Part shown: piece after piece, positions 29,436 to 48,772 of the stretch
Numbering within the stretch: the first letter of the stretch is position 1
How the letters are laid out: each line of letters begins with the position of its first letter
Sequence record: SRR22947725_1805
Reading direction: 5' to 3' (one strand)
Length of the DNA stretch: 64,000 nucleotides
Position numbers and translations under genes: made by a program
Notes under the pieces: model-generated
Database searches by the model: none
What the model was told of the DNA's origin: nothing
The model's input: the letters and a program-made list of their open reading frames with translations, nothing else

Positions 29436-29486
29436 AGCGTCTACTGAAGGTCCACACCGGATCTTCGTATTGTGAAAGGAAGGTTC

Positions 29487-30616: not shown

Positions 30617-30640
30617 TTCCCCACGTCAGGAGGAACTGTA

Positions 30641-35898: not shown

Positions 35899-37062
35899 AT
35901 GCACATCACGAAAGTCAGTGCGATGCTGGTCAACGCACATCTCAGGAACTGGGTATTTGTGAGAGTGGACACGAGTGAACCTGGGCTCTATGGGTTGGGC
36001 GAAGCCACACTGGAGTTTCAGTCCCGAGCAGTAGCGGCACGAGTTGACGAGTTCGAAGAATTACTGCTGAACAAGGACCCGCGGGATATCGCCATGCTCT
36101 GGGAAGCAATGTTCCGGTACCCCTTCTTCCGCGGGGGCGCCGTCACAATGTCGGCAATCAGCGGAATTGACCAGGCTTTGCATGACATCCAGGCGAAAGC
36201 TCTCGGTGTTCCCCTGTGGCGTGTGCTCGGTGGGCTTGCTCGCACCAGGGTGCAAATGTATGACCACGTCGGGGGCGGAGATTCGTCTGCCGTTTATGGT
36301 GATCTTGATGAGGGCATAGCCGAACGAGTCTCCGCGAGTAAAGCGGAGGGGTTCAGCGCAATCAAAATTCTCGCGGTGCCGCAGACCCGCGCCATTGATG
36401 GCATAGGGGCTCTCCGTGAAGCGGAGAGAATTATGCACTCGGCGCGCGAGGCGGGTGGTGACGACATGGACATCATGGTCGATTTTCACGGTCGAACCAC
36501 GTCTGCGATGGCCATCCAATATGCGAAAGTCCTCGAACCGTTTAACCCGTTCTTCATTGAGGAAGTAGTTGGTCCAGAAATCCCGGCCCGGGAAATGGCG
36601 CGCGTGGCGCAGTCCACCGTTATTCCTGTCGCCGCGGGGGAGCGCCTCTTCCATCGCAAAGAGTTCCTCGCTTTGCTAGAAGTTGGGGCCATTAGTGTGG
36701 CGCAGCCGGATGTGTGCCATGCCGGAGGAATAACAGAGACGATGAGGATCGGGGCCCTTGCTGGCGCCTTCGGGGCCCACCTTGCTCCGCACAATCCCTT
36801 GGGACCGATTGCCACGATGGTGAATATTCATCTCGGCTTTGCTCTGCCCAACTTTATGATCCAGGAAGTAATGCGCAACGATGTTCCCTGGCGATACGAC
36901 GTCGTCAAGGGGTCGGTCCCGATCATTGACGGTTTCGTCTCGCCACCCCAGGCACCAGGTATTGGGGTAGAAATTGATGAGAAGGCCGCGGCTCTCCACC
37001 CGTATGAGGCAAGTCAGCCGGTTCAATGGACGCATGCGGATGGGAGTGTAGCGGAATGGTGA
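35899..37062 (+). CDS. dgoD: galactonate dehydratase-like enolase-superfamily enzyme
   Basis: GLGEATLE, SGIDQALHDI, DFHGR, FIEE, AGER, QPD, APHNPLGP, IQE. Confidence 0.78.
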   Translation: MHITKVSAMLVNAHLRNWVFVRVDTSEPGLYGLGEATLEFQSRAVAARVDEFEELLLNKDPRDIAMLWEAMFRYPFFRGGAVTMSAISGIDQALHDIQAKALGVPLWRVLGGLARTRVQMYDHVGGGDSSAVYGDLDEGIAERVSASKAEGFSAIKILAVPQTRAIDGIGALREAERIMHSAREAGGDDMDIMVDFHGRTTSAMAIQYAKVLEPFNPFFIEEVVGPEIPAREMARVAQSTVIPVAAGERLFHRKEFLALLEVGAISVAQPDVCHAGGITETMRIGALAGAFGAHLAPHNPLGPIATMVNIHLGFALPNFMIQEVMRNDVPWRYDVVKGSVPIIDGFVSPPQAPGIGVEIDEKAAALHPYEASQPVQWTHADGSVAEW

Positions 37063-37850
37063 CTCGATCTCAGCAGGGAATGTTGGAGGGGCACCACGTT
37101 GTGGTGACCGGTGGCGCCCAGGGCATTGGCGAAGCAATCGTCGAGGACGCCCTGACTCGTGGCGCTCGGGTGTCGTTCTTTGACATCAACCAGGAGCAGG
37201 CTCAGATTCTGCTCCAACGGCTGGAGGGGCTCGGGTTCCACAGTGGTCAGGATGTTGATTTTCAGACCTGCGACGTCACGAACTTCAGCGCTATTGAGTC
37301 AGCGGTCGCCGCCTGCACCTCGGCCCTGGGGCCGGTCACGGGTTTGGTGAATAACGCGGGCCGAAATTCCTATGCAGATCCTGTGGAGATGACGGAGGAG
37401 CAGTGGGATTCTTTCTTTGATCTAGACCTCAAGTCCTCCTGGTTGATGTGCAAAGCCACCTTGCCGATGATGCGTAAGGCAGGCAAGGGAAGCATTGTCA
37501 ACATCGCCAGCATTCACGCCCACATGAGCTACCCGCAGTATTTTCCCTACGCGGCGGCAAAGTCCGGTTTGCTGGGTCTCACCAGGAATTTGGCTTTGGA
37601 CGAAGGCAAGTACGGGGTCAGAGTGAATACCGTCAGTCCCGGCTACACCCAGACACCGTTACTGCGCGAGTGGTTTGACAATAACCCGGGTTCCGAGGAA
37701 AAGGCTCTGTCGGTGCATGCTCTGGGTATGTTCGGCGAGCCTCGGGACATCGCTTCGGTCGTGAGTTTCTTGCTCTCCGACGAGACTCGCTTTGTCAGCG
37801 GAGCTGACTGGCGAGTCGATGGAGCACTGAGCGCGCGCTTTGCAGGCTAG
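37056..37850 (+). CDS. SDR oxidoreductase, probable aldose 1-dehydrogenase
   Basis: TGGAQGIG, NNAG, NIASIH..FPYAAAK; context with lactonase and dehydratase. Confidence 0.82.
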   Translation: MVTRSQQGMLEGHHVVVTGGAQGIGEAIVEDALTRGARVSFFDINQEQAQILLQRLEGLGFHSGQDVDFQTCDVTNFSAIESAVAACTSALGPVTGLVNNAGRNSYADPVEMTEEQWDSFFDLDLKSSWLMCKATLPMMRKAGKGSIVNIASIHAHMSYPQYFPYAAAKSGLLGLTRNLALDEGKYGVRVNTVSPGYTQTPLLREWFDNNPGSEEKALSVHALGMFGEPRDIASVVSFLLSDETRFVSGADWRVDGALSARFAG

Positions 37851-37874: not shown

Positions 37875-38807
37875 ATGACGTCGTTGAGTACCCGAGACCC
37901 GCAAGGCACGATGGGCGACACCATTGCGGTGCTGCACAAGCAGGAGCTTCCCTCGAGTGACGCCGATTCTCTCCCCGAATCATCGGCCCGATTCGAGGAC
38001 GGACGGAGCTGGCGGTTAGAGATTCCTTCTGTGGAGGGCCCGGGGGCTATGCGGGCAGTCCTGGACGAGGCACAAACTCGCGGAATCGGCGTCGACCGAG
38101 TCAGCCAGGGCAGTGGGATTTTCATGCTCAGCGAATCGGAGATCGCCGACATGCTGGATCAGGGGAAGGCCTCGGGAACAGAAGTGTGTTTGTTTGTGGG
38201 CCCACGCGCATCCTGGGATGTGGGCAAGCAGCCTGCGAGCAGTTCCGGAGTTGTTGCCGCACCTACTCTGCGAGGGGCGGATCAGGTGCGCTATGCCCTG
38301 GAGGACGTCCGGCACGCTGTGGGGCGGGGGCTGCGCAGCATTCTCGTCGGGGATGTGGGTTTGCTCGCCGTTATTGGCCGAGCGACAAGAGAAGGAGATC
38401 TCCCGGCCGACCTTGTCGTCAAAACATCGGTGGCACTGCCGTGCACAAATCCGGCAACCGCGCGAGTTCTGGAGGACTTGGGTGCCACGTCAATTAACTT
38501 GGGTACGGACTTGTCACTGGGGCAGATTGCCGCAATCCGCCAGGCCATTGATGTTCCCGTGGATGTCTACTGCGAGGCACCCGATGATTTTGGGGGGGCT
38601 GTACGACACTATGAGGTCATTGACATGGTCCGAGTAGCGGCACCTATCTACATCAAGTTCACTGTCCGCAATGCTCCGGGGATTTACCCCTCGGGTTTGC
38701 ACTTGGAAAACACTGTGCTCGCAACAGCGAGGGAGAGAGTCAGGCGAGCAAGCCTCGCTATCGACCTCCTCCAGCGCTATTCGAGCACCGCATCGGCTGG
38801 AGAGTAA
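37875..38807 (+). CDS. uncharacterised TIM-barrel protein (resembles proteins labelled peptidase U32 family)
   Basis: Strong SD (AAGGAGAG), co-operonic; RLEIPSVEGP, RVSQGSG, SILVGDVG, NPATARVLEDLGATSIN. Family call from recall only. Confidence 0.55.
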   Translation: MTSLSTRDPQGTMGDTIAVLHKQELPSSDADSLPESSARFEDGRSWRLEIPSVEGPGAMRAVLDEAQTRGIGVDRVSQGSGIFMLSESEIADMLDQGKASGTEVCLFVGPRASWDVGKQPASSSGVVAAPTLRGADQVRYALEDVRHAVGRGLRSILVGDVGLLAVIGRATREGDLPADLVVKTSVALPCTNPATARVLEDLGATSINLGTDLSLGQIAAIRQAIDVPVDVYCEAPDDFGGAVRHYEVIDMVRVAAPIYIKFTVRNAPGIYPSGLHLENTVLATARERVRRASLAIDLLQRYSSTASAGE

Positions 38808-38812: not shown

Positions 38813-40264
38813 ATGGCCCCTCGCGAATGGACAAACCCGCGCACCGGCGCAACGCTCACCCTGGCGATTGAGGATCACTCCGACTCCGACGTGGTTGCGC
38901 TGTGTGAAACCTCGTATCAAGCCTGGCTGACATACCGGGGGTTTAGTTTCCCCGACCGCGTTCGGGTCCTCTCGGCGCTTGCCGATGGATTAGCCGCGAG
39001 CTCCGATGAGGTGGTGGCGATTGCGGACGAGGAGACGGCACTGGGTGAGCCCCGGTTAGTGGGCGAGGTCGCTCGGACAGTCTTCCAGCTGAGAATGTTT
39101 GCGGAAGCTCTCGAGAACGACACACTCTTTCCGCGACAGATTGATGAGGCTGTTGAGGGGCCGCCACCGGCCGGCCACCCAGAGCTGGTCCGAAGCCTCA
39201 TCCCGCTGGGGCCCGTTGCCGTTTTCGGAGCAAGCAATTTTCCGTTTGCTTTTGGGGTTCTGGGCGGTGATGTCGCGTCGGCGCTTGCCGCTGGATGCTC
39301 CGTCATTGTTAAGGAACACTCCGCGCAGCCGCGCCTCTCCCAGAGGTTGGTTGAGCTCGCGCGGGACGTGTTGGAGAAAGAGTTCCCCGGACTTGACATC
39401 TTTCTCTCGGTTCGAGGCACTCAGGCTGGAGCTCAGGTAGTCCAGAACCCGAGAGTGTCGGCCGTCGGGTTCACCGGATCCGTCAGTGGTGGTCGACACC
39501 TCTTTGACCTCGCTCAGGCACGCCCGAATCCCATTCCTTTTTACGGCGAGCTGGGAAGCATTAACCCTGTCGTTGTGTCCCGTCAAGCGGCAGAGTCACG
39601 GGGGGACCAGATTGCTCAAGGTTTTGTTGACTCGCTCCTGTTGGGCGGGGGGCAATTCTGCACGAAGCCATCAGTTCTGGTGATCCCAGAAGACTCAACG
39701 ATTCTGGAAACCATAAAGGTCTCGTTGGCCAGCGCACAGCCGGTGGCCTTGCTGACTACCCGCATTGCGAGTGCCTATCGGGCTCGAGTCGACGAGATGA
39801 CCTCGGCAAACGCCACCAACGTGGTGACCGCTCCGGATAGCTCAGAACCAGGTTCCTGGGTTCATCCCGCGCTGTTTGTGACCAGTGTCGAGGAAATGCT
39901 CACAGAGACGACAATGTTGCGCGAAGAATGCTTCGGTCCAGCCGCCGTCGTTGTTCCCTACGCCACTGATGACGAAGCACTCGCTGTGAGCTCAGTGGGG
40001 GGTGGAGTCTTGGTGGGCAGTGTTCATGGGGAAGATGACGATCCCCTGGCGCAGGCGATAGTCCAGGCCCTCATCCCGAGGGCAGGTCGAATTGTGTGGA
40101 ACGGCTGGCCGACCGGGGTTGCTGTCTCGCCAGCGCAAATGCACGGCGGGCCCTACCCCGCGGCAACTGTTCCTGGAGCAACATCTGTGGGCCTGCACGC
40201 AGCGTCCCGCTTCGTCAGGCCACTGGTGTTGCAATCGATGCCCCCGGGCATGCAGGTGTCATGA
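38813..40264 (+). CDS. NADP-dependent aldehyde dehydrogenase (2,5-dioxopentanoate dehydrogenase-like)
   Basis: VFGASNFPFAF, GFTGS, YGELGSINP, GQFCTKP, EECFGP, GWPTGV..HGGPYPA. Confidence 0.88.
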   Translation: MAPREWTNPRTGATLTLAIEDHSDSDVVALCETSYQAWLTYRGFSFPDRVRVLSALADGLAASSDEVVAIADEETALGEPRLVGEVARTVFQLRMFAEALENDTLFPRQIDEAVEGPPPAGHPELVRSLIPLGPVAVFGASNFPFAFGVLGGDVASALAAGCSVIVKEHSAQPRLSQRLVELARDVLEKEFPGLDIFLSVRGTQAGAQVVQNPRVSAVGFTGSVSGGRHLFDLAQARPNPIPFYGELGSINPVVVSRQAAESRGDQIAQGFVDSLLLGGGQFCTKPSVLVIPEDSTILETIKVSLASAQPVALLTTRIASAYRARVDEMTSANATNVVTAPDSSEPGSWVHPALFVTSVEEMLTETTMLREECFGPAAVVVPYATDDEALAVSSVGGGVLVGSVHGEDDDPLAQAIVQALIPRAGRIVWNGWPTGVAVSPAQMHGGPYPAATVPGATSVGLHAASRFVRPLVLQSMPPGMQVS

Positions 40265-40291: not shown

Positions 40292-40331
40292 TTGCTAAAA
40301 CTCCTCGGGTAGTGTATATATCATATTATGA
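40292..40331 (+). promoter_or_regulatory. AT-rich promoter with palindrome overlapping the first start codon (candidate FadR operator)
   Basis: TTGCTA at 40292, TATATATCAT at 40315-40324, perfect palindrome TCATA-T-TATGA at 40321-40331; no SD. Confidence 0.5.
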
Positions 40332-41359
40332 TTACCCCAGCCGACCTGGCGATGACGCCAGACAATGCTCTTCGTCTCTCTGCACGGCGCAGCAATGACT
40401 ATGACTTTGGGGTGTGGTTTTGGGGCGATGCCATTGCCCTTGATGGCCTCCTTGACGCCGCAGAATTATTGGGCGATGAGAAATCCCTACATCAAGCGGG
40501 GCGGGCCTTTGAGCGCTGGGCCGCCCGCCCGCTGAGTTGGGCCGATCACCTCACTCCAGGTTCCGCCCTGCTGAGATACGGGGAACTGGCGGGGGAGTCA
40601 TGGCCGCTCGAGCGCGCGCAGGAGTTGGCGGCATACCTGGGATCGGTCCCGAGGTCTAGCGGAGCACCTCTCTACCGTCCTGATCTTCCGGAGTATCGCT
40701 ACACGGTGTGGGTGGACACTCTCTACCATGTTCCGGTTTTCTATGCCCGGCTCGCTCACCTCCTGGCAGATGATGCCTGGATTGACAAAGCCGTCGAGGA
40801 ATGGCACTCGCATTGGAATCTGCTGACTGACTCCAGGGGTCCCTTTCTGGCTCACTCGTGGGATACCGGCATGCACAGACTGCACGGGTATGGATGGGGG
40901 CGCGGTTCAGGGTGGGCTCTCTACGGAATGATCGAGACCTTGGAGCACATTCCCCAGAGCTATGCGGGTCGGTCTGCTCTGGTCGCAGACACGCAGAGTT
41001 TTGCCCAGGCTCTTCTGAGCGTTCAAGACCACACGGGATATTGGCACACCCTGCTTCACGACCGGGAATCGTATTTGGAGACCAGTACAGCGTCGTTCTT
41101 CGCAGCAGCATTCCGCAGAGGTATGCGCACCGGCATCCTCGGTCCAGAGTTTGCCGAGGCAACAGACTCTGCATGGCGGGCCACCCTGGGGCGTCTTGAT
41201 GATCGGGGCGAGCTGTGGGGGGTCTCGGCCTGCACCTACGCCAGTGTTGCCAACATTGATGACGTCGTGATGTATCACACGCTCCCCACCGAAGTGAATG
41301 TGTGGGGGCAGGGCTCAGCCATGCGCGCGGCCGCAGAGAACATCAGGTCGGGTCTCTAA
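40328..41359 (+). CDS. GH88/GH105-family (alpha/alpha)6 protein, copy 1
   Basis: WFWGDA, VWVDTLY, AHSWD, WGRGSGW, GYWHTLL, ETSTASF; no signal peptide. Confidence 0.82.
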   Translation: MITPADLAMTPDNALRLSARRSNDYDFGVWFWGDAIALDGLLDAAELLGDEKSLHQAGRAFERWAARPLSWADHLTPGSALLRYGELAGESWPLERAQELAAYLGSVPRSSGAPLYRPDLPEYRYTVWVDTLYHVPVFYARLAHLLADDAWIDKAVEEWHSHWNLLTDSRGPFLAHSWDTGMHRLHGYGWGRGSGWALYGMIETLEHIPQSYAGRSALVADTQSFAQALLSVQDHTGYWHTLLHDRESYLETSTASFFAAAFRRGMRTGILGPEFAEATDSAWRATLGRLDDRGELWGVSACTYASVANIDDVVMYHTLPTEVNVWGQGSAMRAAAENIRSGL

Positions 41360-42132
41360 TGGCCACAGATAACATTCACTGTGAGGTTGCCTCCGGTGTA
41401 GCGCGAATCCTGATTGATCGGCCCGCCAAGCTCAACACCATGACACCCGAGATGGGGGTCGAGCTGATGGGTCTCGTCCCGAGAATCAACGGTGATGACG
41501 AGGTTCGAGTCGTGATTCTCAGTGGTGTGGGCGAGAAGGCTTTCAGCGCTGGCAGCGACGTCTCGGTACTCGACCAGTACGGGACCAATTGGCAGCTTCG
41601 AAACAGACTGGATTATGCCCGCGCCATCTGGGCCATCCGCAAGCCCGTCATCAGCAAAATCAGGGGGTATTGCATTGGCGGCGGGCTCGAAATGGCCCTC
41701 ATGGGTGACCTGCGATACAGCGATGAGACAGCGCAGTTTGGTGCAGGAGAAATCAAGCTTGGCTGGCACGGCGGGGCGGGCAATACCCAGTTACTTCCCC
41801 GGGTCACGGGGCCAGGAATTGCCCTGGAGATGCTCCTCACCGGAGATCTCATCTCGGCTCAGGAAGCTTTGCGAGTAGGGCTCGTGCAAAGGGTTTACCC
41901 TGCCAGCGACCTCGATGCGGAAGTGGACGGTATCGCCCAGCGAATCGCCAAGTCTGCCCCGATTGCCGCCGAGCTGGCCAAACACCTTGTGCGCATCAGC
42001 CAATCCACCAGTCTCGACGTGGGGTTGGCCTATGAGAATGACACGTTCACCTACTGCTTCACCACTGAGGACAGCGCTGAGGGGCGCGAAGCTTTTGCAG
42101 AAAAACGTCCACCCAATTTTCGCGGACGCTAG
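41359..42132 (+). CDS. enoyl-CoA hydratase/isomerase (crotonase), copy 1
   Basis: RPAKLN, FSAGSD, GGGLE, GAGEIKLG, AFAEKRPPNF; TAATG coupling to the GH gene. Confidence 0.92.
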   Translation: MATDNIHCEVASGVARILIDRPAKLNTMTPEMGVELMGLVPRINGDDEVRVVILSGVGEKAFSAGSDVSVLDQYGTNWQLRNRLDYARAIWAIRKPVISKIRGYCIGGGLEMALMGDLRYSDETAQFGAGEIKLGWHGGAGNTQLLPRVTGPGIALEMLLTGDLISAQEALRVGLVQRVYPASDLDAEVDGIAQRIAKSAPIAAELAKHLVRISQSTSLDVGLAYENDTFTYCFTTEDSAEGREAFAEKRPPNFRGR

Positions 42133-42159
42133 TGCGACACAGAACGAGGAAGGCGCGAC

Positions 42160-42933
42160 ATGGCTGAGGGTAGCGACAATCCCGGGGTGACCCTTGTCAC
42201 CGGAGGCGCGCAAGGAATTGGACTCGCCACCGTGGGACTAGTTCTCGAGCGAGGGGGACGTGCCGTTGCTCTGGATAAGAACACCGCAGCACTCGAGCAC
42301 GTGCGCAGCTCGTTCCCGAGCGATTCAGTCCTAGCCCTGGAGTGTGATGTCACACAGGAGGACGATATCCAAGCCGCGGTTGATCAGACCATGGCGAAGT
42401 TTGGTCGTATTGATTCCCTCGTGAACAATGCCGGCATCGGGTCATATTTCGATGCGACGACAATGAGCCAAGAGGACTGGGATCTCGTCTTTTCTGTCGA
42501 TTTGAAATCAGTATGGCTTGTCAGCAAGTGGGTCCTCCCCCACATGATTTCGCAGCAATCCGGGAGCATCGTGAATATTGCCTCGATTCACGCTCGCATG
42601 ACCGTGGGGGGTATGTTCCCCTACGCGGCGGCGAAGAGCGGGGTGATTGGTCTTACGCGGAGCCTGGCTCTGGATATGGCACAGCACCAAATTCGTGTGA
42701 ACGCCGTGAGTCCGGGATGGACCAGAACCTGGCTGGTGCAGGAATGGTTTGAGAAACAGCCCGATCCGATTGCGGCAGAGGAGTCAGTCGTGGGGGTCCA
42801 CCCTTTGGGGCGGATCTGCGAGCCCCTGGAGGTTGCCGAAGTCATTTGCTTTCTCGCGAGCCCACGATCCCACGCAGTGACGGGGGCAGAGTTCTCTGTC
42901 GATGCTGGGCTCAGTGCACGATTTGCCACCTAG
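42160..42933 (+). CDS. SDR oxidoreductase (paralog of 37056-37850)
   Basis: TGGAQGIG, NNAG, NIASIH..FPYAAAKSG, LSARFA. Confidence 0.88.
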   Translation: MAEGSDNPGVTLVTGGAQGIGLATVGLVLERGGRAVALDKNTAALEHVRSSFPSDSVLALECDVTQEDDIQAAVDQTMAKFGRIDSLVNNAGIGSYFDATTMSQEDWDLVFSVDLKSVWLVSKWVLPHMISQQSGSIVNIASIHARMTVGGMFPYAAAKSGVIGLTRSLALDMAQHQIRVNAVSPGWTRTWLVQEWFEKQPDPIAAEESVVGVHPLGRICEPLEVAEVICFLASPRSHAVTGAEFSVDAGLSARFAT

Positions 42934-42958
42934 ATAACTACCACCTGAAAGGAACCTT

Positions 42959-44170
42959 GTGAATCACGGAGCGCTCTCGGATGTCCGAGTACTGGATGCA
43001 ACACAGATGTTGGCAGGCCCCATGGCGGGGACACGGCTCGGAGATTTAGGAGCGGATGTCATCAAAGTGGAGCCCCCGATCGGGGGGGAATTCAACCGCA
43101 CGCATGGATTTGGAGACTCACGAGCTAACGGTGAGATGACAACGTTCCTGGCCATGAACCGCAACAAGCGCAGTCTTGCCGTCGACCTCAAATCAGAGGG
43201 TGGGCTCGACGTGATCTACCAACTGGCCAAGAATTCCGACGTGTTCATTCAGAACTTCCGCCGCGGAACCGCCGAGCGCTTGGGAATCGGCTACGAGAAG
43301 CTTCGGGAGATCAACCCCGGGATCATCTACTGCTCGATTACCGGGTATGGAACGACTGGCCCGCACCGCGATCGTCCAGGTCAGGATCTCATCATGCAGG
43401 GCTACAGCGGCTCGATGTTTTCCGTGGGCAAAGAGGGGGATCCTCCCCTTGCCAGTGCGCTGTGGGCGGCTGATGTGATGACCGGGTATCAAGCGGTGAT
43501 TGGGATCTTGGCGGCTCTCAATAGCCGTCGAGAGAGTGGTCTTGGCCAGAACATTGAGATTGACATGCTCGCTGTGGTGCTGGATTGCCAGTTGCAGGAG
43601 ATCGTGACCTACCTGAACGCTGGATTTATTCCGGAGAGAACTGCTGAAGACAGCGCCCATGGCGCTATGCCCGCACCGTATGGAAGTTACAAAACGAAAG
43701 ACGGATGGCTCAACCTGGCCATGACGCCTCTTCCCGCTTTGGCAGAGGTGATCGACAATGACTGGCTTCGGACCCTGGTGAACTACGACGACGGTCATCG
43801 CCTTCGGGACAAGATTTACGCCATGCTTCGGGACGCGTTCGTCGATAAGACGACAGCGGAATGGATTGAGTTGTGTGACACGCACGGAGTGTGGGCGGGA
43901 CCGGTCTATGACTTCCCCGCCCTCGCCCAGGATCCTCACATCATTGAGGAGAACTACTTTGTGCCGCAACCTCAAAGAGTGGGTGGCTCAGCCCAAACCG
44001 TGAGAGTCCCCATCAAAATGTCCGGCACACCGCCCGAGATTCGGCGGGGGGCGCCAGGGCTTGGGGAACACACCCGAGAAATCCTGGCTGATGTCGGCAT
44101 GGACGACAGCGCAATCGAGGCATTGGTTGCCTCGGGAGCGGTAGGAACAATCGACAAGGAGACATCATGA
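42959..44170 (+). CDS. family III CoA-transferase (CaiB/BaiF)
   Basis: LAGP, LGDLGADVIKVEPP, NRNKRSLAVDLK, QNFR, AADVMTG (catalytic Asp), APGLGEHT. Confidence 0.93.
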   Translation: MNHGALSDVRVLDATQMLAGPMAGTRLGDLGADVIKVEPPIGGEFNRTHGFGDSRANGEMTTFLAMNRNKRSLAVDLKSEGGLDVIYQLAKNSDVFIQNFRRGTAERLGIGYEKLREINPGIIYCSITGYGTTGPHRDRPGQDLIMQGYSGSMFSVGKEGDPPLASALWAADVMTGYQAVIGILAALNSRRESGLGQNIEIDMLAVVLDCQLQEIVTYLNAGFIPERTAEDSAHGAMPAPYGSYKTKDGWLNLAMTPLPALAEVIDNDWLRTLVNYDDGHRLRDKIYAMLRDAFVDKTTAEWIELCDTHGVWAGPVYDFPALAQDPHIIEENYFVPQPQRVGGSAQTVRVPIKMSGTPPEIRRGAPGLGEHTREILADVGMDDSAIEALVASGAVGTIDKETS

Positions 44171-44952
44171 CCTCGAAAGACCTTCTGCTGGAGCGGCACG
44201 GTCACGTTGCGGTGATCAGACTGAACCGTCCCGACAAACTCAACGCCATGACGGCTGACATGGATCGGATGATGAACGATTTCACGTTCACCATCAACAA
44301 TGACGCGAGCATCAGGGCCGTCGTGCTGACCGGGAACGGTGAGCGGGCCTTTTGTGCGGGGAGTGACATCACAGAACTTGATGAGTACGGGGAGAACTGG
44401 GAATACCGCAATCGATTCGATGCCCGGATGGATTACGCCAGGGCCATCCACTTGATTCGTAAGCCCATCGTTGCTGCCCTCTTTGGCTACGTCATTGGTG
44501 GGGGACTGGAAATGGCCTGCGCGAGCGATATTCGATTGGGAACCCCTGATTCGCAGTTTGGGGCCGGCGAAATCAACTGGGGATGGCACGGAGGCTCCGG
44601 CCAAACCCAGTATTTGACGCGAGCGATAGGTCCGGGCAACGCTGCGCGATTGCTTCTCACGGGGGAGAGGTTCGATGCTGATTTTGCGTTGCGGACCGGG
44701 TTGCTTCAGGAAATTCACCCCAGAGAAAAACTGGAGAGTGCTGCCCTGGCTTTGGCCGAGAGCATTGCGGCAAAATCCCCGATTGCGATCCAAATGACCA
44801 AACACATGATTCGGGTAGCCCAAAACACAGCACTCGATGTGGGCCTCATGGTCGAGAACGACTCCTTCAGCTATTGCATGACCACCGAGGATTCGGTGGA
44901 GGGTCAGAAAGCGTTCGCCGAGAAGCGGACGCCGAACTTTCAGGGAAAGTGA
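44167..44952 (+). CDS. enoyl-CoA hydratase/isomerase (crotonase), copy 2
   Basis: NRPDKLNA, FCAGSD, GGGLE, GAGEINWG, AFAEKRTPNF. Confidence 0.92.
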   Translation: MTSKDLLLERHGHVAVIRLNRPDKLNAMTADMDRMMNDFTFTINNDASIRAVVLTGNGERAFCAGSDITELDEYGENWEYRNRFDARMDYARAIHLIRKPIVAALFGYVIGGGLEMACASDIRLGTPDSQFGAGEINWGWHGGSGQTQYLTRAIGPGNAARLLLTGERFDADFALRTGLLQEIHPREKLESAALALAESIAAKSPIAIQMTKHMIRVAQNTALDVGLMVENDSFSYCMTTEDSVEGQKAFAEKRTPNFQGK

Positions 44953-44959
44953 GGGCACG

Positions 44960-45913
44960 ATGGCTGACAGAGCGCTTCATCATCGGGTGAGGATTCCCCT
45001 CGGGCCGAGATTTGCCGATCTCTGGCTCTTTCTGGGGGAGAAGCACCATGTGTTATTCGATAGCGGAACGAGGGGAACCCTCACCGAATCGGTCCTCCCC
45101 GCCTTGGAGAGCCTGGGTTATGGTCCGGAGAGTGTCAGCACTGTTGTCATCAGCCATTTGGATGTTGACCACTGTGGCGAGGCAGGCAATATTCGCTCGG
45201 TCCTGCCCGAGGCGGTAACTATGGCTCACGCTGGCGATTCCGATGCAATTTCTGATTGGGACACCTTCAGCGCGCAGCGGGGACGAGAGTTTGCTGAGGG
45301 ATGGGGCTTAGACGAGTCCCCGGAAGCGATGGCGTGGATGCGCGACGTTTTCCTTCCCGGGCCAGTCGACACTGTCCTGACCTCGGAAACGACGCTGACA
45401 CTCGATGATGGGCGAGACCTCGAGGTGTGGCATGTTCCAGGCCACAGCCTGGGCCACCTGGCACTGTATGACTCCCAGTGCGACACCCTCGCTATTTCAG
45501 ATGCGATTCTGGGAAGTGCTGTGCCGCTCGCGGAGGGAGCTCCATCTTTCCCCCCCACCTATCGACACGTTGATTCCTATCTCCAGACCATCGCTCGGGT
45601 GCGAGACCTCATGCCCCGCCTTCTCTTGACAGCCCATTACGGGGATTACCGAGACGAGGAGGTTGCAGCCTTTGTGGACGAGTCCGAAGCGTTTGTGCAC
45701 GCGCTGGATGAGGTTGTCCGCAGTGTGCTCGGCTCGCAGCCGAAAACCCTCGAGGACTTGGTCCATGAGATCAACCCCCTCGTGGCGACGTGGCCGATAG
45801 AGGGGACCTACACGGCGTTGGCGTTCCCGGTAGCCGGGCATCTTGAACAGCTCCACCAGTCTCAGACCATTACTCGACACGACGGCCCTCGGGGCTGGGA
45901 ATGGACACGATGA
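44960..45913 (+). CDS. MBL-fold metallo-hydrolase (possible lactonase/thioesterase)
   Basis: LFDSG, SHLDVDH (HxDxDH variant), PGHSLGH, SDA, TAH. Confidence 0.83.
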   Translation: MADRALHHRVRIPLGPRFADLWLFLGEKHHVLFDSGTRGTLTESVLPALESLGYGPESVSTVVISHLDVDHCGEAGNIRSVLPEAVTMAHAGDSDAISDWDTFSAQRGREFAEGWGLDESPEAMAWMRDVFLPGPVDTVLTSETTLTLDDGRDLEVWHVPGHSLGHLALYDSQCDTLAISDAILGSAVPLAEGAPSFPPTYRHVDSYLQTIARVRDLMPRLLLTAHYGDYRDEEVAAFVDESEAFVHALDEVVRSVLGSQPKTLEDLVHEINPLVATWPIEGTYTALAFPVAGHLEQLHQSQTITRHDGPRGWEWTR

Positions 45914-46968
45914 ATCACGACGCGCTGAGAGCACTGCTGCAGAAGGCGGCACCTCAACTGATGGAGCTGGAGTACGAAACCTGGAACTTTGGAGATTCGA
46001 CGGGTTTCGAAGCCATGATTCGCTCCGCTGACACGCTGAACTCAGAGGATTTGCGAAACTTTGCCTACGGCTGGTTCCGCTCCTGGGCCACGCGCGCCCA
46101 GCCCTACGAGCGTCTCGACTGCACTGCGCCTGGCCTCGCCATCGTGTTGGCAGCGGAGAGAGCAAAAAACCAGAGTTTGCTCGATGCTGCTCTGGGGCTT
46201 GCGGACTATCTCACCAGCCGCCGAAAAATTGGTGCTGTGTATGAAACGTGGGAGCGCTCCCCCCTGATGGCGCCCTACGGGGGAGAGGAACTCCCGGAGG
46301 AAGAAAAGGCGATTCTTGACTCTCGACCCGGGGGTTTCTTCGTCGACTGTCTTCACTTTGATCCTCCTTTCTTCGCTGCTTTGGCTCGCGTGACGGGGGA
46401 TGAGAGGTGGCGACAAGAGGCACTGGAGCAAGCCGAAGGATATATCCGAGCCCTCCAGAAGCCTTCGGGGCTTTTTGACCATTTCGTGTTGGATGGTTGG
46501 CCAGACCGGACCTTCGGTCCCGGCTGGGGTCGCGGACAAGGGTGGGCACTCTTGGGCTTGGTTGATGTCGTCGAGCAACTCCATCTAGATTCCGATCACG
46601 AGGTGGCCCGCTCTGCAGTGTCCTTGATCGACGCCATGGTGACACTGCAATCCTCGGATGGGAGCTGGCCGGTCGTGATTACACATCCCGAGTCCGGCGA
46701 GGAGCCCAGCACTGCTGCCTTCATGGCGACAGGGTTCCTGAGAGCGCTCAAATTGGGGCTGGTCTCAGGTGACGAGGTTAGGCAATCTGCCGAGCGCGCC
46801 CTGGAATCTGTGATGAGTCAGTGCGATGACCAGGGACTACTCTCGGGTGTTTCGCGGGCCGTGATGGCGTGCACCAGAGCATCACACTACGGCCACGTCC
46901 CCCGCGGTTTCAATGTTCCGTGGGGGCAAGGCCCTCTTGTCCTCGCACTATGCGAAGCTTTGGAGTGA
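45901..46968 (+). CDS. GH88/GH105-family (alpha/alpha)6 protein, copy 2
   Basis: WNFGD, FFVDCLHF, GLFDH, WGRGQGW, EPSTAAF, WGQG; no signal peptide. Confidence 0.8.
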   Translation: MDTMNHDALRALLQKAAPQLMELEYETWNFGDSTGFEAMIRSADTLNSEDLRNFAYGWFRSWATRAQPYERLDCTAPGLAIVLAAERAKNQSLLDAALGLADYLTSRRKIGAVYETWERSPLMAPYGGEELPEEEKAILDSRPGGFFVDCLHFDPPFFAALARVTGDERWRQEALEQAEGYIRALQKPSGLFDHFVLDGWPDRTFGPGWGRGQGWALLGLVDVVEQLHLDSDHEVARSAVSLIDAMVTLQSSDGSWPVVITHPESGEEPSTAAFMATGFLRALKLGLVSGDEVRQSAERALESVMSQCDDQGLLSGVSRAVMACTRASHYGHVPRGFNVPWGQGPLVLALCEALE

Positions 46969-47690
46969 TGAAGACCGCAATTGTCACAGGTGCTGCTTCG
47001 GGTATTGGGTTGGCGACCACTCGGCAGCTAGTCGAGGCTGGTTACCGGGTCCACGCGGTGGATCGGGCCGAGGACGGTTTATCTCGTGAGAGTAAAAACC
47101 ACGACTCTTCCTCGTTCATCCCCCACGTCGGAGATGTCAGTGATGAACAGCTCTGGTCGAGCCTTTCCGCTGCGGTTGACGGTCAGGTGGATGTCCTTGT
47201 GCACAACGCCTTTGCTCTGCATCTCAAGCCACTCCACCTGCAGACGAAAGATGAATGGACTCTGCAGTGGGAGGTGATGGTGGGGGCAGTGTTTTATTCG
47301 GTGGCTCATCTGCACGATGCCCTCCTGAGCGCGTCAGGGTCGATGGTGTTGGTCTCGAGTGTCCATTCCCGGATCGGCATTCCAGGCCACCCCGCATACG
47401 CGGCGGCCAAAGGAGCCCTGAATGCGCTTGCCCGGCAGCTTGCAGTCGAGTACGGTCCCAGAATTCGCGTCAATTCCGTGATACCCGGTCCCATTCGCAC
47501 CCCGGTCTGGGATTCCGCTTCGAAGGAGGATCTTGCTCAGGTCGCTCACCAAACACCTCTTGGCCGTTTAGGTGACCCAGACGAGGTTGCACGCGTGATT
47601 TGTTTTCTTGGGTCCACAGACTCGAGTTATATCCACGGCGCTGAGATTGTTGTCGACGGCGGTTGGAGCATCGCCAAAGACTCGCGCTGA
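46968..47690 (+). CDS. SDR oxidoreductase
   Basis: TGAASGIG, HNA, SSVH..YAAAK, VVDGG. Confidence 0.88.
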   Translation: MKTAIVTGAASGIGLATTRQLVEAGYRVHAVDRAEDGLSRESKNHDSSSFIPHVGDVSDEQLWSSLSAAVDGQVDVLVHNAFALHLKPLHLQTKDEWTLQWEVMVGAVFYSVAHLHDALLSASGSMVLVSSVHSRIGIPGHPAYAAAKGALNALARQLAVEYGPRIRVNSVIPGPIRTPVWDSASKEDLAQVAHQTPLGRLGDPDEVARVICFLGSTDSSYIHGAEIVVDGGWSIAKDSR

Positions 47691-47733
47691 TTATGCTCAT
47701 GTGTATGCACCACCGCAGGGAAATGGAGCTGTA

Positions 47734-48432
47734 ATGGCTCGACTCCGTGGCCTGTCTCCCGAGATAGCGGGGGATTTGGGCAGAAAAATTATTTCCGGGG
47801 AGCTCCCCGAGGACAGCACCTTTCGACTTCAGGATGTCGAGGGTTGGTATGGGGTGAGTGTCACTGTTGCCCGAGAAGTCATGCACGCTTTGCAAAGCAA
47901 AGGTCTCGTTGAAGCCCGTCCTCGCCGGGGGATCACCGTCCTGGGACGGGACTCGTGGGACCTTTTGGATGCTGATGTGTTGCAGTGGCACGAGAACCAC
48001 CTGGGCCACATCATCGCCGACTTGGAGGAGTCCCGACTGCTGATTGAACCCTGGGCGGCAAAAACTGCAGCGATAGCAGGCTCCCCGGGAGATATTCAGC
48101 GGTTGCGCGAGGCCATGACCGCGCTGACTGTTGCCGCAGATTCAGCCGATGTCGCCGCCATGACACGGGCCGACCTGGCCTTCCACCGAGTCTTGCTCGA
48201 GGTCAGCGGGAATTCGATTCTCTCCCGCATTGGCCGAGTCATTGAGCCGGCACTGAGGCGCCGTGACGAACTCACCCTGCACGACAAAAAACGCGAAGAC
48301 CTCACCTTTCTGCCCCTTCATGAGGGAATTGTGGCGGCCATTGAACGGCGAGAGCCAGAGGCAGCGGAGATCGCCGCAACCCTGCTCATTACCGAGAGTG
48401 GCTCTGACAGCTCTCAAGTCCTCGGACGATGA
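47734..48432 (+). CDS. FadR/GntR family regulator (DgoR-like)
   Basis: GVSVTVAREVM..KGLVEARPRRG, WDLLDADVLQW, RLLIEP, DLAFH, SGN. Confidence 0.88.
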   Translation: MARLRGLSPEIAGDLGRKIISGELPEDSTFRLQDVEGWYGVSVTVAREVMHALQSKGLVEARPRRGITVLGRDSWDLLDADVLQWHENHLGHIIADLEESRLLIEPWAAKTAAIAGSPGDIQRLREAMTALTVAADSADVAAMTRADLAFHRVLLEVSGNSILSRIGRVIEPALRRRDELTLHDKKREDLTFLPLHEGIVAAIERREPEAAEIAATLLITESGSDSSQVLGR

Positions 48433-48472: not shown

Positions 48473-48772
48473 ATGAATGTTTCTCGGCTGGGAGCAACGG
48501 ATCTCATGGTCAGTGACCTGAGTTTGGGCACGATGACCTTTGGGAAAGAAGCGGATGAGCAGACTGCTCATCACCTTCTGGATACGTTCGTCGGCGCCGG
48601 TGGAACCATGATCGATACCGCGGATCGATATGCGATGGGTCTGAGTGAGGAAATCATCGGGCGCTGGGTAGAAAAGTCGGGCCATCGCGATCGTGTCATT
48701 CTGGCCACCTTAGATCGGAAAATGGCCTCATCCGCCGCCGCGTATTGCGTGGTGCTGGTGGGGCCCGAATAA
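48473..48772 (+). pseudogene. truncated aldo/keto reductase (N-terminal ~80 codons only)
   Basis: RLGATDLMVSDLSLGTMTFG, DTADRY, SEEIIG, RDRVILAT; similarity stops at ~48709 where the catalytic Lys of ATK should be, with a stop at 48772. Confidence 0.85.

Follow-up and report, generated by a model that had tools for sequence, protein, structure and literature searches.

A candidate CoA-dependent sugar-acid catabolic array pairing GH105-like proteins with a family III CoA-transferase and crotonases

The window, that is, the whole stretch of 64,000 nucleotides analysed here (sequence record SRR22947725_1805), has an aquatic actinobacterium as its probable source. An earlier sequence-only reading had singled out nine genes at 40328-48432, and open reading frames and Pfam assignments reproduce their order and coordinates: GH105-like protein, crotonase, SDR, family III CoA-transferase, crotonase, MBL-fold hydrolase, second GH105-like protein, SDR, and FadR-type regulator. 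The borders of that reading are too narrow: at 29472-40264, upstream of the nine, lie 11 genes in the same orientation whose families are found again in related loci. The latter are drawn from a comparison set of 80 loci, retrieved from genomes by means of the GH protein. The features are as follows (Pfam E-values unless bit scores are given).

29472..30557, +, ABC sugar-binding protein, CUT2-type (Peripla_BP_4), opening the co-directional array; Pfam 4.5e-26
30605..31420, +, ABC transporter ATPase; PF00005, 8.6e-30
31422..32468, +, ABC transporter permease (BPD_transp_2, monosaccharide type); PF02653, 8.1e-45
32486..33388, +, SMP-30/gluconolactonase-family lactonase; PF08450, 5.4e-72
33385..34305, +, DHDPS-family enzyme; PF00701, 1.1e-21
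34298..35260, +, PfkB kinase, KDG/KDGal-kinase-like; PF00294, 4.3e-46
35257..35898, +, KDPG/KHG aldolase (Eda family); PF01081, 2.4e-45
35899..37062, +, enolase-superfamily dehydratase, galactonate-dehydratase type; NF010624, 345 bits, cut-off 311
37026..37850, +, SDR0, sugar-1-dehydrogenase-like short-chain dehydrogenase; PF13561, 1.1e-56
37875..38807, +, U32-like protein; weak PF01136 match, 1.1e-7
38813..40264, +, divergent aldehyde dehydrogenase (ALDH); PF00171, 3.6e-40
40328..41359, +, GH1, cytoplasmic GH105-like protein; PF07470, 2e-47
41359..42132 (ORF 41302-42132), +, ECH1, crotonase; PF00378, 9.5e-58
42160..42933, +, SDR1, short-chain dehydrogenase; PF13561, 9.4e-61
42959..44170, +, family III (CaiB/Frc-type) CoA-transferase; PF02515, 3.7e-106
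44167..44952, +, ECH2, crotonase; PF00378, 9e-55
44960..45913, +, MBL-fold hydrolase; PF00753, 6.6e-17
45901..46968, +, GH2, second cytoplasmic GH105-like protein; PF07470, 6.7e-32
46968..47690, +, SDR2, short-chain dehydrogenase; PF13561, 1.2e-52
47734..48432 (ORF 47608-48432), +, FadR-type regulator (GntR HTH + FCD); FCD 6.8e-21, GntR 1.6e-9
48474..48772, +, truncated aldo-keto reductase remnant, marking the downstream edge of the array; partial Pfam match

The core genes are tightly coupled and several overlap. The likely ATG of ECH1 is at 41359, since homology begins at residue 20, and it shares one base with the GH1 stop. ECH2 overlaps the CoA-transferase gene by 4 bases, and GH2 overlaps the MBL gene by 13. 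SDR2 would start at a Met sharing one base with the GH2 stop, the FadR-type regulator likely starts at about 47734, and the real start of SDR0 is probably later than the ORF start. The core genes had been credited with a promoter of their own, for which a consensus scan gives no support: the 63-bp gap at 40265-40327 contains no plus-strand site, and the best promoter-like site on that strand (10/12) lies at 29407-29435, upstream of the transporter genes. The gap is AT-rich, has a TATA-like stretch immediately in front of the ATG, and lacks a clear ribosome-binding site, so a leaderless promoter is possible. Downstream, what had been listed as an AKR gene turns out to be a truncated remnant that matches only positions 2-69 of the 291 in the Pfam model, in a reading frame ending at 48772. 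A DNA contig from a lake metagenome diverges from the window sequence at 48709. Contigs from RNA libraries cover the core genes at a depth of only 3-5.

Several upstream products can be placed more closely. The binding protein has homologues of 64-66% identity adjoining GH genes in loci L026 and L040. The DHDPS-family enzyme, a family present in 19 of the 80 loci, may act on a 2-keto-3-deoxy sugar acid, either as an aldolase or as a dehydratase. The top NCBIfam match of the kinase is KDG/KDGal kinase (170 bits, under the model cut-off), and the aldolase passes TIGR01182 (175 bits against a cut-off of 156). For the galactonate-dehydratase-type protein, the top PDB match is 3rr1 (1.2e-79), and relatives of 53-65% identity occur in L010, L012, L013, L026, L037, L038, L040, L064, and L072; the window and many loci carry such a gene together with sugar-dehydrogenase-like SDRs. 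SDR0 is 47% identical to SDR1. The Atlas matches of the U32-like protein are U32-like clusters only, mostly of Actinomycetota, and this protein is also paired with the same type of ALDH in L007 and L047. The ALDH itself exceeds the cut-off of none of the NCBIfam models compared and has relatives of 39-43% identity in L001, L007, and L047.

The core proteins likewise have counterparts beside other GH genes. ECH1 is 72% identical to the ECH of L001 and L072, SDR1 has relatives in L001, L005, and L007 (53-58%), and the CoA-transferase is 62-69% identical to those of L044, L048, L056, L058, L065, L072, and L074. ECH2, 50.6% identical to ECH1, has as its best solved relative the 3-hydroxypropionyl-CoA dehydratase 5zai (1.2e-51). 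A counterpart of SDR2 lies downstream of GH2 in L044, L054, L056, L058, L062, L065, and L074, and the cluster of the FadR-type regulator (at least 30% identity) has members in 27 loci.

Alignment to solved relatives bears out the earlier judgement that the catalytic residues are intact in GH1, GH2, both crotonases, and the CoA-transferase. For GH1 the comparison uses the functional residues of YteR as listed in PMC4528949. Asp130, His176, and Asp73 align with YteR Asp143, His189, and Asp88, and Trp190-x-Arg192-x-x-x-Trp196 aligns with YteR Trp211..Trp217. By that list, GH1 keeps the −1 site residues for the unsaturated uronate ring, namely Asp88, Trp141, Asp143, His189, Trp211, and Trp217 in YteR numbering. 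The pocket differs from that of characterised GH105 enzymes in that YteR His132 and Lys133 are replaced by Arg117 and Pro118. The GH1 model (pLDDT 87.7) has the (alpha/alpha)6 fold, with a TM-score of 0.82 to YteR 2gh4, and we propose that GH1 is a vinyl-ether hydratase. GH2 is 31% identical to GH1; it retains Asp73, Asp149, and the WGRGQGW motif, with His194 shifted by one position in the pairwise alignment. Neither GH N-terminus shows a signal peptide when judged by eye, as had been noted before, and the nearest NCBIfam model for both is NF051900 ("beta-galactosidase"), far under its cut-off. Both catalytic Glu residues are present in ECH1 and in ECH2, and Asp172 of the CoA-transferase falls, in the alignment, on the Asp that solved family III enzymes conserve.

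The motif of the MBL-fold enzyme is HxDxDH and not HxHxDH, and it is invariant in 16 of 16 aligned relatives. Its model (pLDDT 94) has TTHA1429, LACTB2, and PqsE as Foldseek neighbours, of which PqsE, a 2-aminobenzoylacetyl-CoA thioesterase, is the closest characterised one. We propose that the enzyme is an acyl-CoA thioesterase, with a lactonase as the alternative.

The sequence-only reading staked its case on the gene combination recurring elsewhere, and the comparison favours it. Of the 80 loci, 45 have both a CoA-transferase gene and an enoyl-CoA hydratase gene (crotonase or MaoC) at most 10 kb from the GH gene, and the two are no more than 150 bp apart in 43 of these 45. The loci span six phyla: Actinomycetota, Chloroflexota, Acidobacteriota, Pseudomonadota, Dormiibacterota, and Poribacteria. 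On the GH tree the CoA-gene label is clustered, requiring 10 changes where shuffled labels need 26.3 on average, a value as low being reached in 0 of 500 shuffles; in the clade of GH2, 13 of 14 rows have CoA genes. PfkB and KDPG-aldolase genes flank CoAT-ECH2-GH2 in the window and in L044, L052, L054, L065, L074, and L077, and PfkB only does so in L062. In L047, a MaoC dehydratase takes the place of the crotonase beside the CoA-transferase and the GH (non-orthologous REPLACEMENTS). In sister clades, the neighbour of the GH is an enolase-superfamily gene instead. Such a gene, without CoA genes, is present in 16 of the 80 loci; in 11 of these 16 its distance from the GH is less than 500 bp, and in 10 it is on the same strand. 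Enzymes of that superfamily catalyse alpha-proton abstraction and beta-elimination, as proposed here, on free carboxylates. P0190, a distant GH relative, is a fusion protein that also contains alginate-lyase and heparinase II/III domains, and such lyase domains are the canonical route to the double bond. The sole apparent CoA-transferase-GH fusion, P0204, is probably a frameshift artefact, with an Arg/Pro/Gly-rich linker.

A Pfam scan of 59 window ORFs found no polysaccharide lyase, in agreement with the earlier reading. The accompanying statement that the window lacks kduI has to be corrected: a KduI/IolB-family gene, probably iolB, lies at 61284-62180 on the minus strand within a myo-inositol cluster, and the array itself (29472-48432) has no KduI or KduD orthologue. 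Four actinobacterial isolates with the cluster (G001 to G004) have one PF07470 match per genome, the cluster GH (lyase INDEPENDENCE), and searches of these genomes for eight lyase Pfam families gave no match. Two of five genomes with the cluster also encode UxaC, so the cluster does not simply take the place of the isomerase pathway. The scanned window ORFs include no CoA ligase that could prime the route.

We propose that 29472-48432 encodes a cytoplasmic sugar-acid catabolic system with a core triad of family III CoA-transferase, crotonase, and GH105-like protein. The reading that we prefer, which we regard as plausible while stopping short of calling it probable, is that a pyranuronate, free or glycosidic, is made into a CoA thioester and loses its C4 substituent by elimination; the resulting vinyl ether is then hydrated by the GH105-like protein, and its product is passed to KDG or oxidative routes. 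The ABC transporter would import the pyranuronic acid, which could be a hexuronate, either free or with a 4-O-substituent (e.g., 4-O-methyl-glucuronate), or else a small uronide (e.g., an aldobiouronic acid). Judging from its family and intact Asp, the CoA-transferase would convert the C6 carboxylate to the thioester, the donor being succinyl-CoA or the pathway's own product-CoA, as with CaiB in carnitine metabolism. A crotonase with both Glu residues present may then take H5 and expel the C4 substituent; since C5 is alpha and C4 beta to the thioester, this would be the ordinary 3-hydroxyacyl-CoA dehydratase reaction. The predicted product, 4,5-unsaturated uronyl-CoA, is an alpha-alkoxy-acrylyl thioester and thus a vinyl ether. 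The transferase would hand the CoA on, or the MBL-fold enzyme would remove it. Hydration of the vinyl ether by the GH105-like protein would take place at C5, in the manner of YteR and UGL acting on lyase products, so that the ring opens, the aglycone (if any) is released, and 4-deoxy-5-hexosulose uronate is formed. From their families, the SDRs, the PfkB kinase, and the KDPG aldolase could carry this on to pyruvate and glyceraldehyde-3-phosphate, or an oxidative branch could run via the ALDH and the DHDPS-family enzyme.

The central idea, that CoA-dependent dehydration creates an enol ether for the GH to hydrate, had been put forward in the earlier reading, and it fits the MaoC of L047, the enolase-superfamily gene of the sister clades, and P0190. 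We infer its chemical steps and substrate, as against the gene content, coupling, intact residues, and conserved association described above, which are observed. In a uronate the C4 substituent sits beta to the C6 carboxyl, and a substrate of this kind is the better fit to the chemistry and to the downstream genes. The monosaccharide-type transporter, an AraF-like binding protein found in related loci, and a mutarotase-like gene (20 of 80 loci) count for a small substrate. Against the preferred reading stand the galactonate-dehydratase-type gene and the sugar-dehydrogenase-like SDRs, which would be superfluous in a pure uronate route and fit released galactose or another substrate, as well as the GH1 pocket at the positions of YteR His132 and Lys133. 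Against it, too, 14 of the 80 loci have no partner gene (seven of these are shorter than 14 kb) and a further 5 of 80 have one of the two CoA genes. The lack of a priming ligase among the scanned ORFs, the UxaC genes, the probable artefact P0204, and the low RNA depth also count against it.

The same chemistry could act on a 2-O-glycosyl-glycerate or another alpha-alkoxy-beta-hydroxy acid, which we consider unlikely. CoA activation and crotonase dehydration would then give 2-(glycosyloxy)acrylyl-CoA, an enolpyruvyl ether, whose hydration by the GH105-like protein would free a sugar (e.g., galactose) and pyruvate or pyruvyl-CoA, the sugar being oxidised via lactonase, galactonate dehydratase, kinase, and aldolase. 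Such a substrate would account for the galactonate dehydratase (over the NCBIfam cut-off in the window and at 594 bits in L036), the sugar-dehydrogenase-like SDRs, the lactonase, and the mutarotase-like gene, and it is consistent with the AraF-like binding protein and with the name of NF051900. The −1 site residues kept by GH1 speak instead for a vinyl ether within a ring. The transporters belong to the monosaccharide type, and loci such as L052 have the triad, kinase, and aldolase but lack any sugar dehydrogenase or dehydratase nearby. A non-carbohydrate substrate seems improbable; it would be a heterocyclic or alicyclic hydroxy acid (for instance, a tetrahydropyran or tetrahydrofuran carboxylate, or a secondary metabolite from plants or algae) that undergoes CoA activation, dehydration, and enol-ether hydration as above. 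Family III transferases and crotonases usually process organic acids, and the GH1 pocket departs from that of YteR at His132 and Lys133. There is also a precedent in phenylacetate catabolism, where oxepin-CoA hydrolase (the ECH domain of PaaZ or an alternative crotonase) opens a cyclic enol-ether CoA thioester hydrolytically, according to PMC9007349. The neighbours of the triad are nevertheless consistently sugar-acid genes (sugar ABC transporters, lactonase, galactonate dehydratase), with KDG kinase, KDPG aldolase, and the mutarotase-like gene also in the surroundings.

The order of steps in the sequence-only reading fares worse than its central idea. It had an SDR oxidise a neutral sugar or glycoside and the MBL enzyme open the lactone, followed by CoA activation of the aldonate and formation of the enol ether by a crotonase. 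Every family named is present, and MBL-fold lactonases exist and give weak NCBIfam matches; however, dehydration of an open-chain aldonyl-CoA yields a 2-keto-3-deoxy acid and not an enol ether, and the enolase-superfamily dehydratase in the window already dehydrates aldonates without CoA. The MBL gene occurs in only 19 of 80 loci as against 45 for the CoA-transferase and hydratase, its product's nearest characterised fold neighbour is PqsE, and a separate SMP-30 lactonase is encoded upstream, all of which makes this order quite improbable. Least probable, and already disfavoured, is that the adjacency is meaningless. In that case the GHs would act on lyase-derived oligosaccharides as unsaturated uronyl hydrolases of the ordinary kind, and the substrates of the CoA enzymes would be unrelated acids. 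The GH105 catalytic residues and the label "unsaturated rhamnogalacturonyl hydrolase" given to homologues in source databases would suit it. Against it stand the clade-structured association in 45 of 80 loci and six phyla, the gene overlaps in the window, which indicate co-translation, the MaoC of L047, and the four isolate genomes, in which the cluster GH is the sole PF07470 gene and the eight lyase families were not found.

Our literature search, like the sequence-only reading, found no described pathway with the combination of GH105-like protein, CoA-transferase, and crotonase. GH88/GH105-kind enzymes normally complete the breakdown of lyase-cut pectin or glycosaminoglycan fragments (YteR/YesR, UGL; KduI/KduD or DhuI/DhuD, KdgK, KdgA). 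The array shares with that pathway the PF07470 family, the (alpha/alpha)6 fold of the GH1 model with the YteR Asp, His, and Trp-x-Arg-x-x-x-Trp kept, and KDG-kinase-type and KDPG-aldolase genes beside the module. It differs in the cytoplasmic GH1 and GH2, in the replaced His132 and Lys133, in having no lyase in the scanned window ORFs or, for eight families, in the four carrier genomes, and no KduI or KduD orthologue in the array; the CoA-transferase and crotonase stand in for the double-bond-forming enzyme. In the carnitine CaiB/CaiD cycle, the same enzyme pair dehydrates a beta-hydroxy acid as its CoA ester, and the proposed logic (activate, dehydrate, pass the CoA to the next substrate molecule) is alike. 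The NCBIfam carnitine CoA-transferase model gives a weak match (141 bits), and carnitinyl-CoA dehydratases are among the PDB matches of ECH2; all scores are under the cut-offs, and the array is therefore not orthologous to the carnitine system. It differs further in its sugar-acid gene context, in the lack of a CaiC-type ligase among the window ORFs scanned, and in the proposed product, a vinyl ether passed to a GH-fold hydratase.

The NCBIfam model "oxepin-CoA hydrolase, alternative type" is among the weaker matches of ECH2. In the oxepin-CoA system, the hydratase opens the ring itself and no GH-fold protein is involved, whereas the two crotonases of the window keep the Glu pair of true hydratases. 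Galactonate dehydratase and galactarolactone cycloisomerase resemble the proposed route in alpha-proton abstraction and beta-elimination beside a carboxylate; unlike it, enolase-superfamily enzymes use Mg2+-stabilised enolates of free acids and are CoA-free, and we know of no member that dehydrates a pyranuronate across C4-C5. The NAD-dependent GH4/GH109 enzymes and the 3-keto-glycoside pathways also cleave glycosides by cofactor-dependent elimination, in which a cofactor acidifies the proton and elimination is followed by hydration in place of direct hydrolysis; those routes oxidise C3 with NAD or FAD, whereas a C6 thioester is proposed here. If the preferred uronate reading is true, the array may represent an undescribed, lyase-free breakdown of uronic acids or their glycosides, in which the GH105-like and CoA-transferase/crotonase pairing recurs across six bacterial phyla, beyond the probable actinobacterial source of the window.

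The window has two GH/crotonase/SDR sets, yet a single transferase gene and a single MBL gene. Two modules that are found separately elsewhere seem to have been merged here, and the merged modules perhaps serve two stereochemical series.

An unbroken array of genes occupies 29472–48432 of the window, with all genes co-directional on the + strand. Eleven genes lie upstream of the first GH88/GH105-domain protein, GH1, and from GH1 the array runs on to a FadR-type regulator, as follows.

Gene families of the array, with domain matches and E-values
upstream of GH1, +, monosaccharide-type ABC transporter (binding-protein gene 29472–30557)
upstream of GH1, +, SMP-30 lactonase
upstream of GH1, +, DHDPS-family enzyme
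upstream of GH1, +, PfkB kinase
upstream of GH1, +, KDPG aldolase
35899–37062, +, enolase-superfamily dehydratase, passing the galactonate dehydratase model NF010624 (345 bits vs a cut-off of 311)
upstream of GH1, +, short-chain dehydrogenase (SDR)
upstream of GH1, within 37875–40264, +, U32-like protein
upstream of GH1, within 37875–40264, +, divergent aldehyde dehydrogenase (ALDH)
40328–41359, +, GH1, PF07470 (GH88/GH105), 2e-47
second in order, +, ECH1, crotonase, PF00378, 9.5e-58
third, +, SDR1, SDR
fourth, +, CoAT, family III CoA-transferase, PF02515, 3.7e-106, profile positions 1–366
fifth, +, ECH2, crotonase, PF00378, 9e-55
sixth, 44960–45913, +, MBL, metallo-beta-lactamase-fold protein, 6.6e-17
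45901–46968, +, GH2, second PF07470 protein, 6.7e-32
after GH2, +, SDR2, second SDR
after SDR2, +, FadR-type regulator, N-terminal GntR HTH (1.6e-9) and C-terminal FCD domain (6.8e-21)

The domain matches, the overlaps and the short gaps bear out the gene order and tight coupling described in the sequence-only reading. The GH1 stop and the likely ECH1 start have one base in common (41359), as do the GH2 stop and the likely SDR2 start (46968). There is an overlap of 4 bases between CoAT and ECH2 and one of 13 bases between MBL and GH2, and the remaining intergenic gaps from GH1 to the regulator are under 45 bp. The regulator, having both the GntR HTH and the FCD domain, belongs to the FadR subfamily. 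The promoter earlier assigned to GH1 was not recovered: no promoter-like site was scored on the + strand in the 63-bp gap before the gene (40265–40327), although this gap is AT-rich; totals of the consensus scan are near the shuffled expectation (promoters, 9 vs 5.8; terminators, 18 vs 16.4). Likewise, the aldo-keto reductase (AKR) noted after the regulator is a truncated remnant of about 75 AKR-like residues at 48474–48772. A lake-metagenome DNA contig matches the array up to 48709 and then continues into different sequence. Given the truncated AKR and the departure of the lake contig, a rearrangement or deletion seems to have brought the array next to the atoD/atoA/thiolase genes at 48953–51496.

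Is the combination of GH and CoA genes conserved? A scan of the genome collection with the GH1 sequence alone found no relative; when repeated with an alignment of GH1 relatives, it gave 80 loci from named genomes and MAGs, which were fetched with 10 kb on either side and searched with the window proteins by tblastn. A family III CoA-transferase together with a crotonase or MaoC-type hydratase is found in 45 of the 80 loci, a count that covers the surroundings of GH genes only. The transferase and hydratase genes are less than 150 bp apart in 43 of these 45. Just one of the two CoA genes is present in five loci, and an enolase-superfamily gene without either CoA gene in 16. The other 14 have neither CoA nor enolase-superfamily genes, and half of them (7) are shorter than 14 kb. 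Synteny of GH105, CaiB and crotonase genes across taxa, the check proposed for the earlier reading, extends over at least six phyla. Three types of arrangement occur repeatedly, as follows.

Type A: FadR, GH1-type, CoAT, ECH1-type, MBL, then ABC transporter, SDR, ALDH or dehydratase; Nocardioides, Chloroflexota, Bryobacterales
Type B: CoAT, ECH2-type, (MBL), GH2-type, SDR2, FadR, with PfkB, KDPG-aldolase and DHDPS genes near; Actinomycetota, Dormiibacterota, and a MAG labelled Pseudomonas
Type C: FadR and GH, then SDR, AraF-like transporter, mutarotase-like gene, ECH, CoAT, galactonate dehydratase; Alphaproteobacteria, Vibrio, Poribacteria

By gene content, the window appears to combine a complete type B module with what is left of type A (GH1, ECH1, SDR1). 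In tblastn comparisons, the window CoAT is closer to the transferases of type B (62–69% identity) than to those of type A (about 50%). Presence of the CoA genes also follows the GH phylogeny: mapped onto 82 GH sequences by a quick maximum-likelihood tree, it requires 10 changes vs 26.3 when shuffled, a value as low being reached in none of 500 shuffles, and 13 of the 14 rows of the GH2 clade have CoA genes. To obtain canonical GH105 loci for comparison, 121 Actinomycetota genomes were searched with PF07470, and only the seed genome rose above the cut-off. Comparative support for the cluster as a functional unit is strong.

Both GH proteins are GH105-like. GH1 has the PF07470 domain and an (alpha/alpha)6 barrel, and its model (pLDDT 87.7) superimposes on the GH105 structures 3pmm, 3qwt, 4wu0 and YteR, a characterised GH105 enzyme, with TM of 0.80–0.82, vs 0.67 for the GH88 enzyme UGL (1vd5). 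The YteR active-site residues listed in PMC4528949 are Asp88, Asp143, His189, Trp211 and Trp217. A profile of GH1 relatives aligned with YteR places W128-V-D130, H176, D73 and W190-G-R192-G-S-G-W196 of GH1 on W141-x-D143, H189, D88 and W211..W217. GH2, 31% identical to GH1, retains the Asp residues and the WGRGxGW motif: in the pairwise alignment F147-V-D149, D73 and WGRGQGW are kept and His194 is one position off. With that one shift, the GH catalytic residues are intact, as had been read from the sequence. YteR His132, which is listed as conserved, and Lys133 are replaced in GH1 by Arg117 and Pro118, both invariant in the alignment of GH1 relatives. This replacement leads us to call the proteins GH105-like rather than canonical GH105; activity on 4,5-unsaturated uronides is predicted. 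In the GH1/YteR alignment the Arg between the two Trp residues is conserved, and we take it to be part of a carboxylate site. If so, a reading in which the GH acts on the free acid, with CoA recycled in the manner of CaiB, would be favoured.

Automatic annotation names the relatives of GH1 "unsaturated rhamnogalacturonyl hydrolase". Among 50%-identity representatives, 52 match GH1 at E ≤ 1e-30 and 935 at E ≤ 1e-10. The nearest named NCBIfam model, NF051900 ("beta-galactosidase BglB"), was rejected as an identity, with 106 bits for GH1 and 90 bits for GH2 vs a cut-off of 420; ten locus GHs score 46–92 bits, and a literature search on this model found nothing relevant. Longer, fused relatives of GH1 were sought and none was found, which is weak evidence. 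One related protein, P0204, looks like a CoAT-GH fusion. Its linker is rich in Arg, Pro and Gly and its GH part starts with its own Met, so that it is probably a frameshift or gene-calling artefact, and we counted it as adjacency only.

The CoA enzymes also have the residues expected of them, in agreement with the sequence-only reading. ECH2 matches its best solved relative, 3-hydroxypropionyl-CoA dehydratase (5zai), at both catalytic Glu residues, and ECH1 has the same Glu motifs by eye; each thus combines PF00378 with both Glu residues of a crotonase/enoyl-CoA hydratase. CoAT matches PF02515 over its full length, and its Asp172 aligns with the conserved Asp of the solved formyl-CoA transferase and succinate-hydroxymethylglutarate CoA-transferase, placing it in family III; it exceeds the cut-off of no equivalog model.

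The MBL protein had been proposed to act as a lactonase. The metallo-beta-lactamase fold is confirmed by its model (TM 0.76 to 2zo4), and the nearest characterised fold neighbour is PqsE, at a TM of about 0.65–0.70. PqsE is a CoA thioesterase. This likeness, and the presence of the gene in only 19 of the 80 loci, weakly favour an accessory thioesterase over a lactonase. In an alignment of MBL relatives the metal motif is H66-x-D68-x-D70-H71, that is, HxDxDH in place of HxHxDH, and is invariant in 16 of 16 sequences, with H162, D181 and H226 kept. The subfamily, comprising the window protein and those of 15 related loci, also has invariant FPPTYR and C-terminal GHLE motifs.

How could these enzymes act together? 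Relative to the C6 carboxyl of a pyranuronate, the alpha carbon is C5, which also carries the ring oxygen, and the beta carbon is C4. This geometry suggests a sequence of CoA transfer, dehydration and hydration. CoA would be transferred onto C6, and an ordinary 3-hydroxyacyl-CoA dehydration over C4–C5 would give the 4,5-unsaturated uronate skeleton that GH88/GH105 enzymes hydrate. Hydration by the GH105-like protein would then yield 4-deoxy-5-hexosulose uronate, which an SDR could convert to KDG for the PfkB kinase and KDPG aldolase; ALDH and the DHDPS-family enzyme could form an alternative, oxidative branch. Members of the SDR, PfkB, KDPG aldolase, ALDH and DHDPS families are all found in the window and again in type B loci. 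Support for this mechanism is moderate. We read the cluster as an unsaturated-uronate hydrolase pathway in which a CaiB/CaiD-like front end replaces the lyase. It differs from the known pathway in that the double bond made there by a lyase is proposed here to be made by CoAT and crotonase. It differs from the CaiB/CaiD cycle in that the CaiC ligase expected there has no counterpart here, no CaiC-type priming CoA ligase (AMP-binding) being found among the 59 window ORFs scanned.

Other neighbours of the GH could make the same bond. In L047, a Conexibacter locus, a MaoC-type dehydratase replaces the crotonase immediately 5′ of CoAT and GH, and in whole sister clades of the GH an enolase-superfamily gene is directly next to the GH and the CoA genes are absent. 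Alpha-proton removal and beta-elimination next to a carboxyl group have two standard solutions, crotonase or MaoC acting on a thioester and an enolase-superfamily enzyme acting on the free acid. The enolase-superfamily genes beside these GHs are candidates for a pyranuronate 4,5-dehydratase, and the lyase domains of P0190, a distant relative fused to alginate-lyase and heparinase II/III domains, would be a third solution. In each case, judging by gene content, the GH-fold protein has a partner that could introduce a double bond between the carbons alpha and beta to a carboxylate. Loci with an adjoining enolase-superfamily gene and no CoA genes include L008, L018, L027, L042, L045, L051, L055, L063 and L067 (around position 10000).

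Lyases were also looked for in cluster-bearing genomes (lyase INDEPENDENCE). In four actinobacterial isolates (G001–G004) the cluster GH is the sole PF07470 match, and eight lyase Pfam families gave no match, two of which, PF08787 and PF09284, were silent in control genomes too. A fifth carrier, a marine alphaproteobacterium, has two heparinase II/III-type matches. UxaC is missing from three of the five carrier genomes and present in two.

As to the substrate, the monosaccharide-type transporters, the AraF-like binding protein and the mutarotase-like gene, present in 20 of the 80 loci, point to a molecule of monosaccharide size. The mutarotase-like protein (about 300 aa, with faint similarity to aldose-1-epimerase and DUF4432; e.g., L036 15623–16459 and L065 11174–12088) is absent from the window. 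The galactonate dehydratase and sugar-dehydrogenase-like SDRs suggest processing of galactose as well, which a uronyl-galactose disaccharide would fit. The same genes fit a different substrate, a glycosyl-glycerate dehydrated to an enolpyruvyl glycoside; this involves the same alpha-alkoxy-acrylate chemistry and would release the sugar, for example galactose. Within the uronate scheme, loss of methanol by 4-O-methyl-glucuronyl-CoA would be an appealing special case, though a purely speculative one.

It is tempting to propose, as a tentative scheme that we consider rather unlikely, a lyase-free, thioester-driven cleavage of uronic-acid linkages in at least six phyla. CoAT with a crotonase or MaoC would introduce the 4,5 double bond into a uronyl-CoA (in sister lineages the enolase superfamily may do so on the free acid), expelling the O4 substituent (water, methanol or a sugar), and the cytoplasmic GH105-like enzyme would hydrate the vinyl ether and free the C1 substituent. 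This would amount to a new class of cofactor-dependent cleavage of glycosides or ethers, and it could be the missing route for the breakdown of recalcitrant uronides, 4-O-methyl-glucuronate and aldobiouronic acids among them.

To our knowledge, the only role understood for GH88 and GH105 enzymes is alongside polysaccharide lyases. In this clade, the conserved partnership with CoA or enolase-superfamily enzymes suggests a second, intracellular way of making and consuming 4,5-unsaturated uronates. The earlier remark that no pathway with this combination is described agrees with our search, in which no link of GH88/GH105 with CoA-transferases or crotonases, nor any uronyl-CoA ester, was found in the full-text literature covered, which takes in few subscription journals, so a prior description may exist. 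If such a second way exists, it would bring a new logic to carbohydrate catabolism, with a thioester doing the job of a lyase's metal or arginine. It would give a function to a widespread clade now named automatically, and candidate enzymes for uronides resistant to ordinary glycosidases.

The nearest relative of GH1 is from Nocardioides (60% identity), and other window genes look actinobacterial. Half or more of the sampled words from 40000–48500 are found in each of 14 runs, from five studies, that are labelled as aquatic, lake-water, salt-lake or marine metagenomes, from which the route may matter to carbon turnover in waters. Two metatranscriptome libraries contain contigs 90–97% alike on the CoAT, ECH2, MBL and GH2 genes at a depth of 3–5, and the ECH2/MBL and MBL/GH2 junctions are each spanned by single contigs. 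Contigs 90–95% alike on the binding-protein gene (29472–30557) reach a depth of 140–270, vs 3–28 for the remaining array. These RNA-library contigs, in which DNA carry-over is possible and uncovered stretches have no weight, are compatible with expression in relatives.

Several neighbouring genes deserve mention. The U32-peptidase-like protein (about 310 aa) and the divergent ALDH form a pair at 37875–40264 that recurs near GH/CoA genes in two Actinomycetota loci (L007 1764–4165 and L047 15485–17995); an Atlas search with the U32-like protein returned U32-like proteins only. Divergent from the main array, on the - strand at 22250–29260, is a second sugar-acid cluster, with an enolase-superfamily protein, an enolase, an APH-family kinase, an SDR, an FAH-family hydrolase, a second enolase-superfamily dehydratase and a GntR+FCD regulator. 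A myo-inositol catabolic cluster is on the - strand at 53292–63079, with a LacI regulator on the + strand. It encodes a TPP enzyme (IolD-like), a GFO/IDH/MocA dehydrogenase, a Cgl0159-like aldolase, a PfkB kinase and two xylose-isomerase-like TIM barrels, together with a KduI/IolB-family gene (61284–62180), probably iolB, which qualifies the earlier statement that the window has no kduI. An amino-sugar utilisation cluster at 12581–20049 comprises a GntR/UTRA regulator, NanE, a BadF-type kinase, a CUT1 ABC transporter, an amidohydrolase and a glucosamine-6-phosphate isomerase family protein. Finally, a type III polyketide synthase, an ICMT-family methyltransferase, an FAD monooxygenase and a UbiA prenyltransferase are encoded at 5792–9221, a cluster similar to the alkylresorcinol or alkylquinone loci of actinomycetes.
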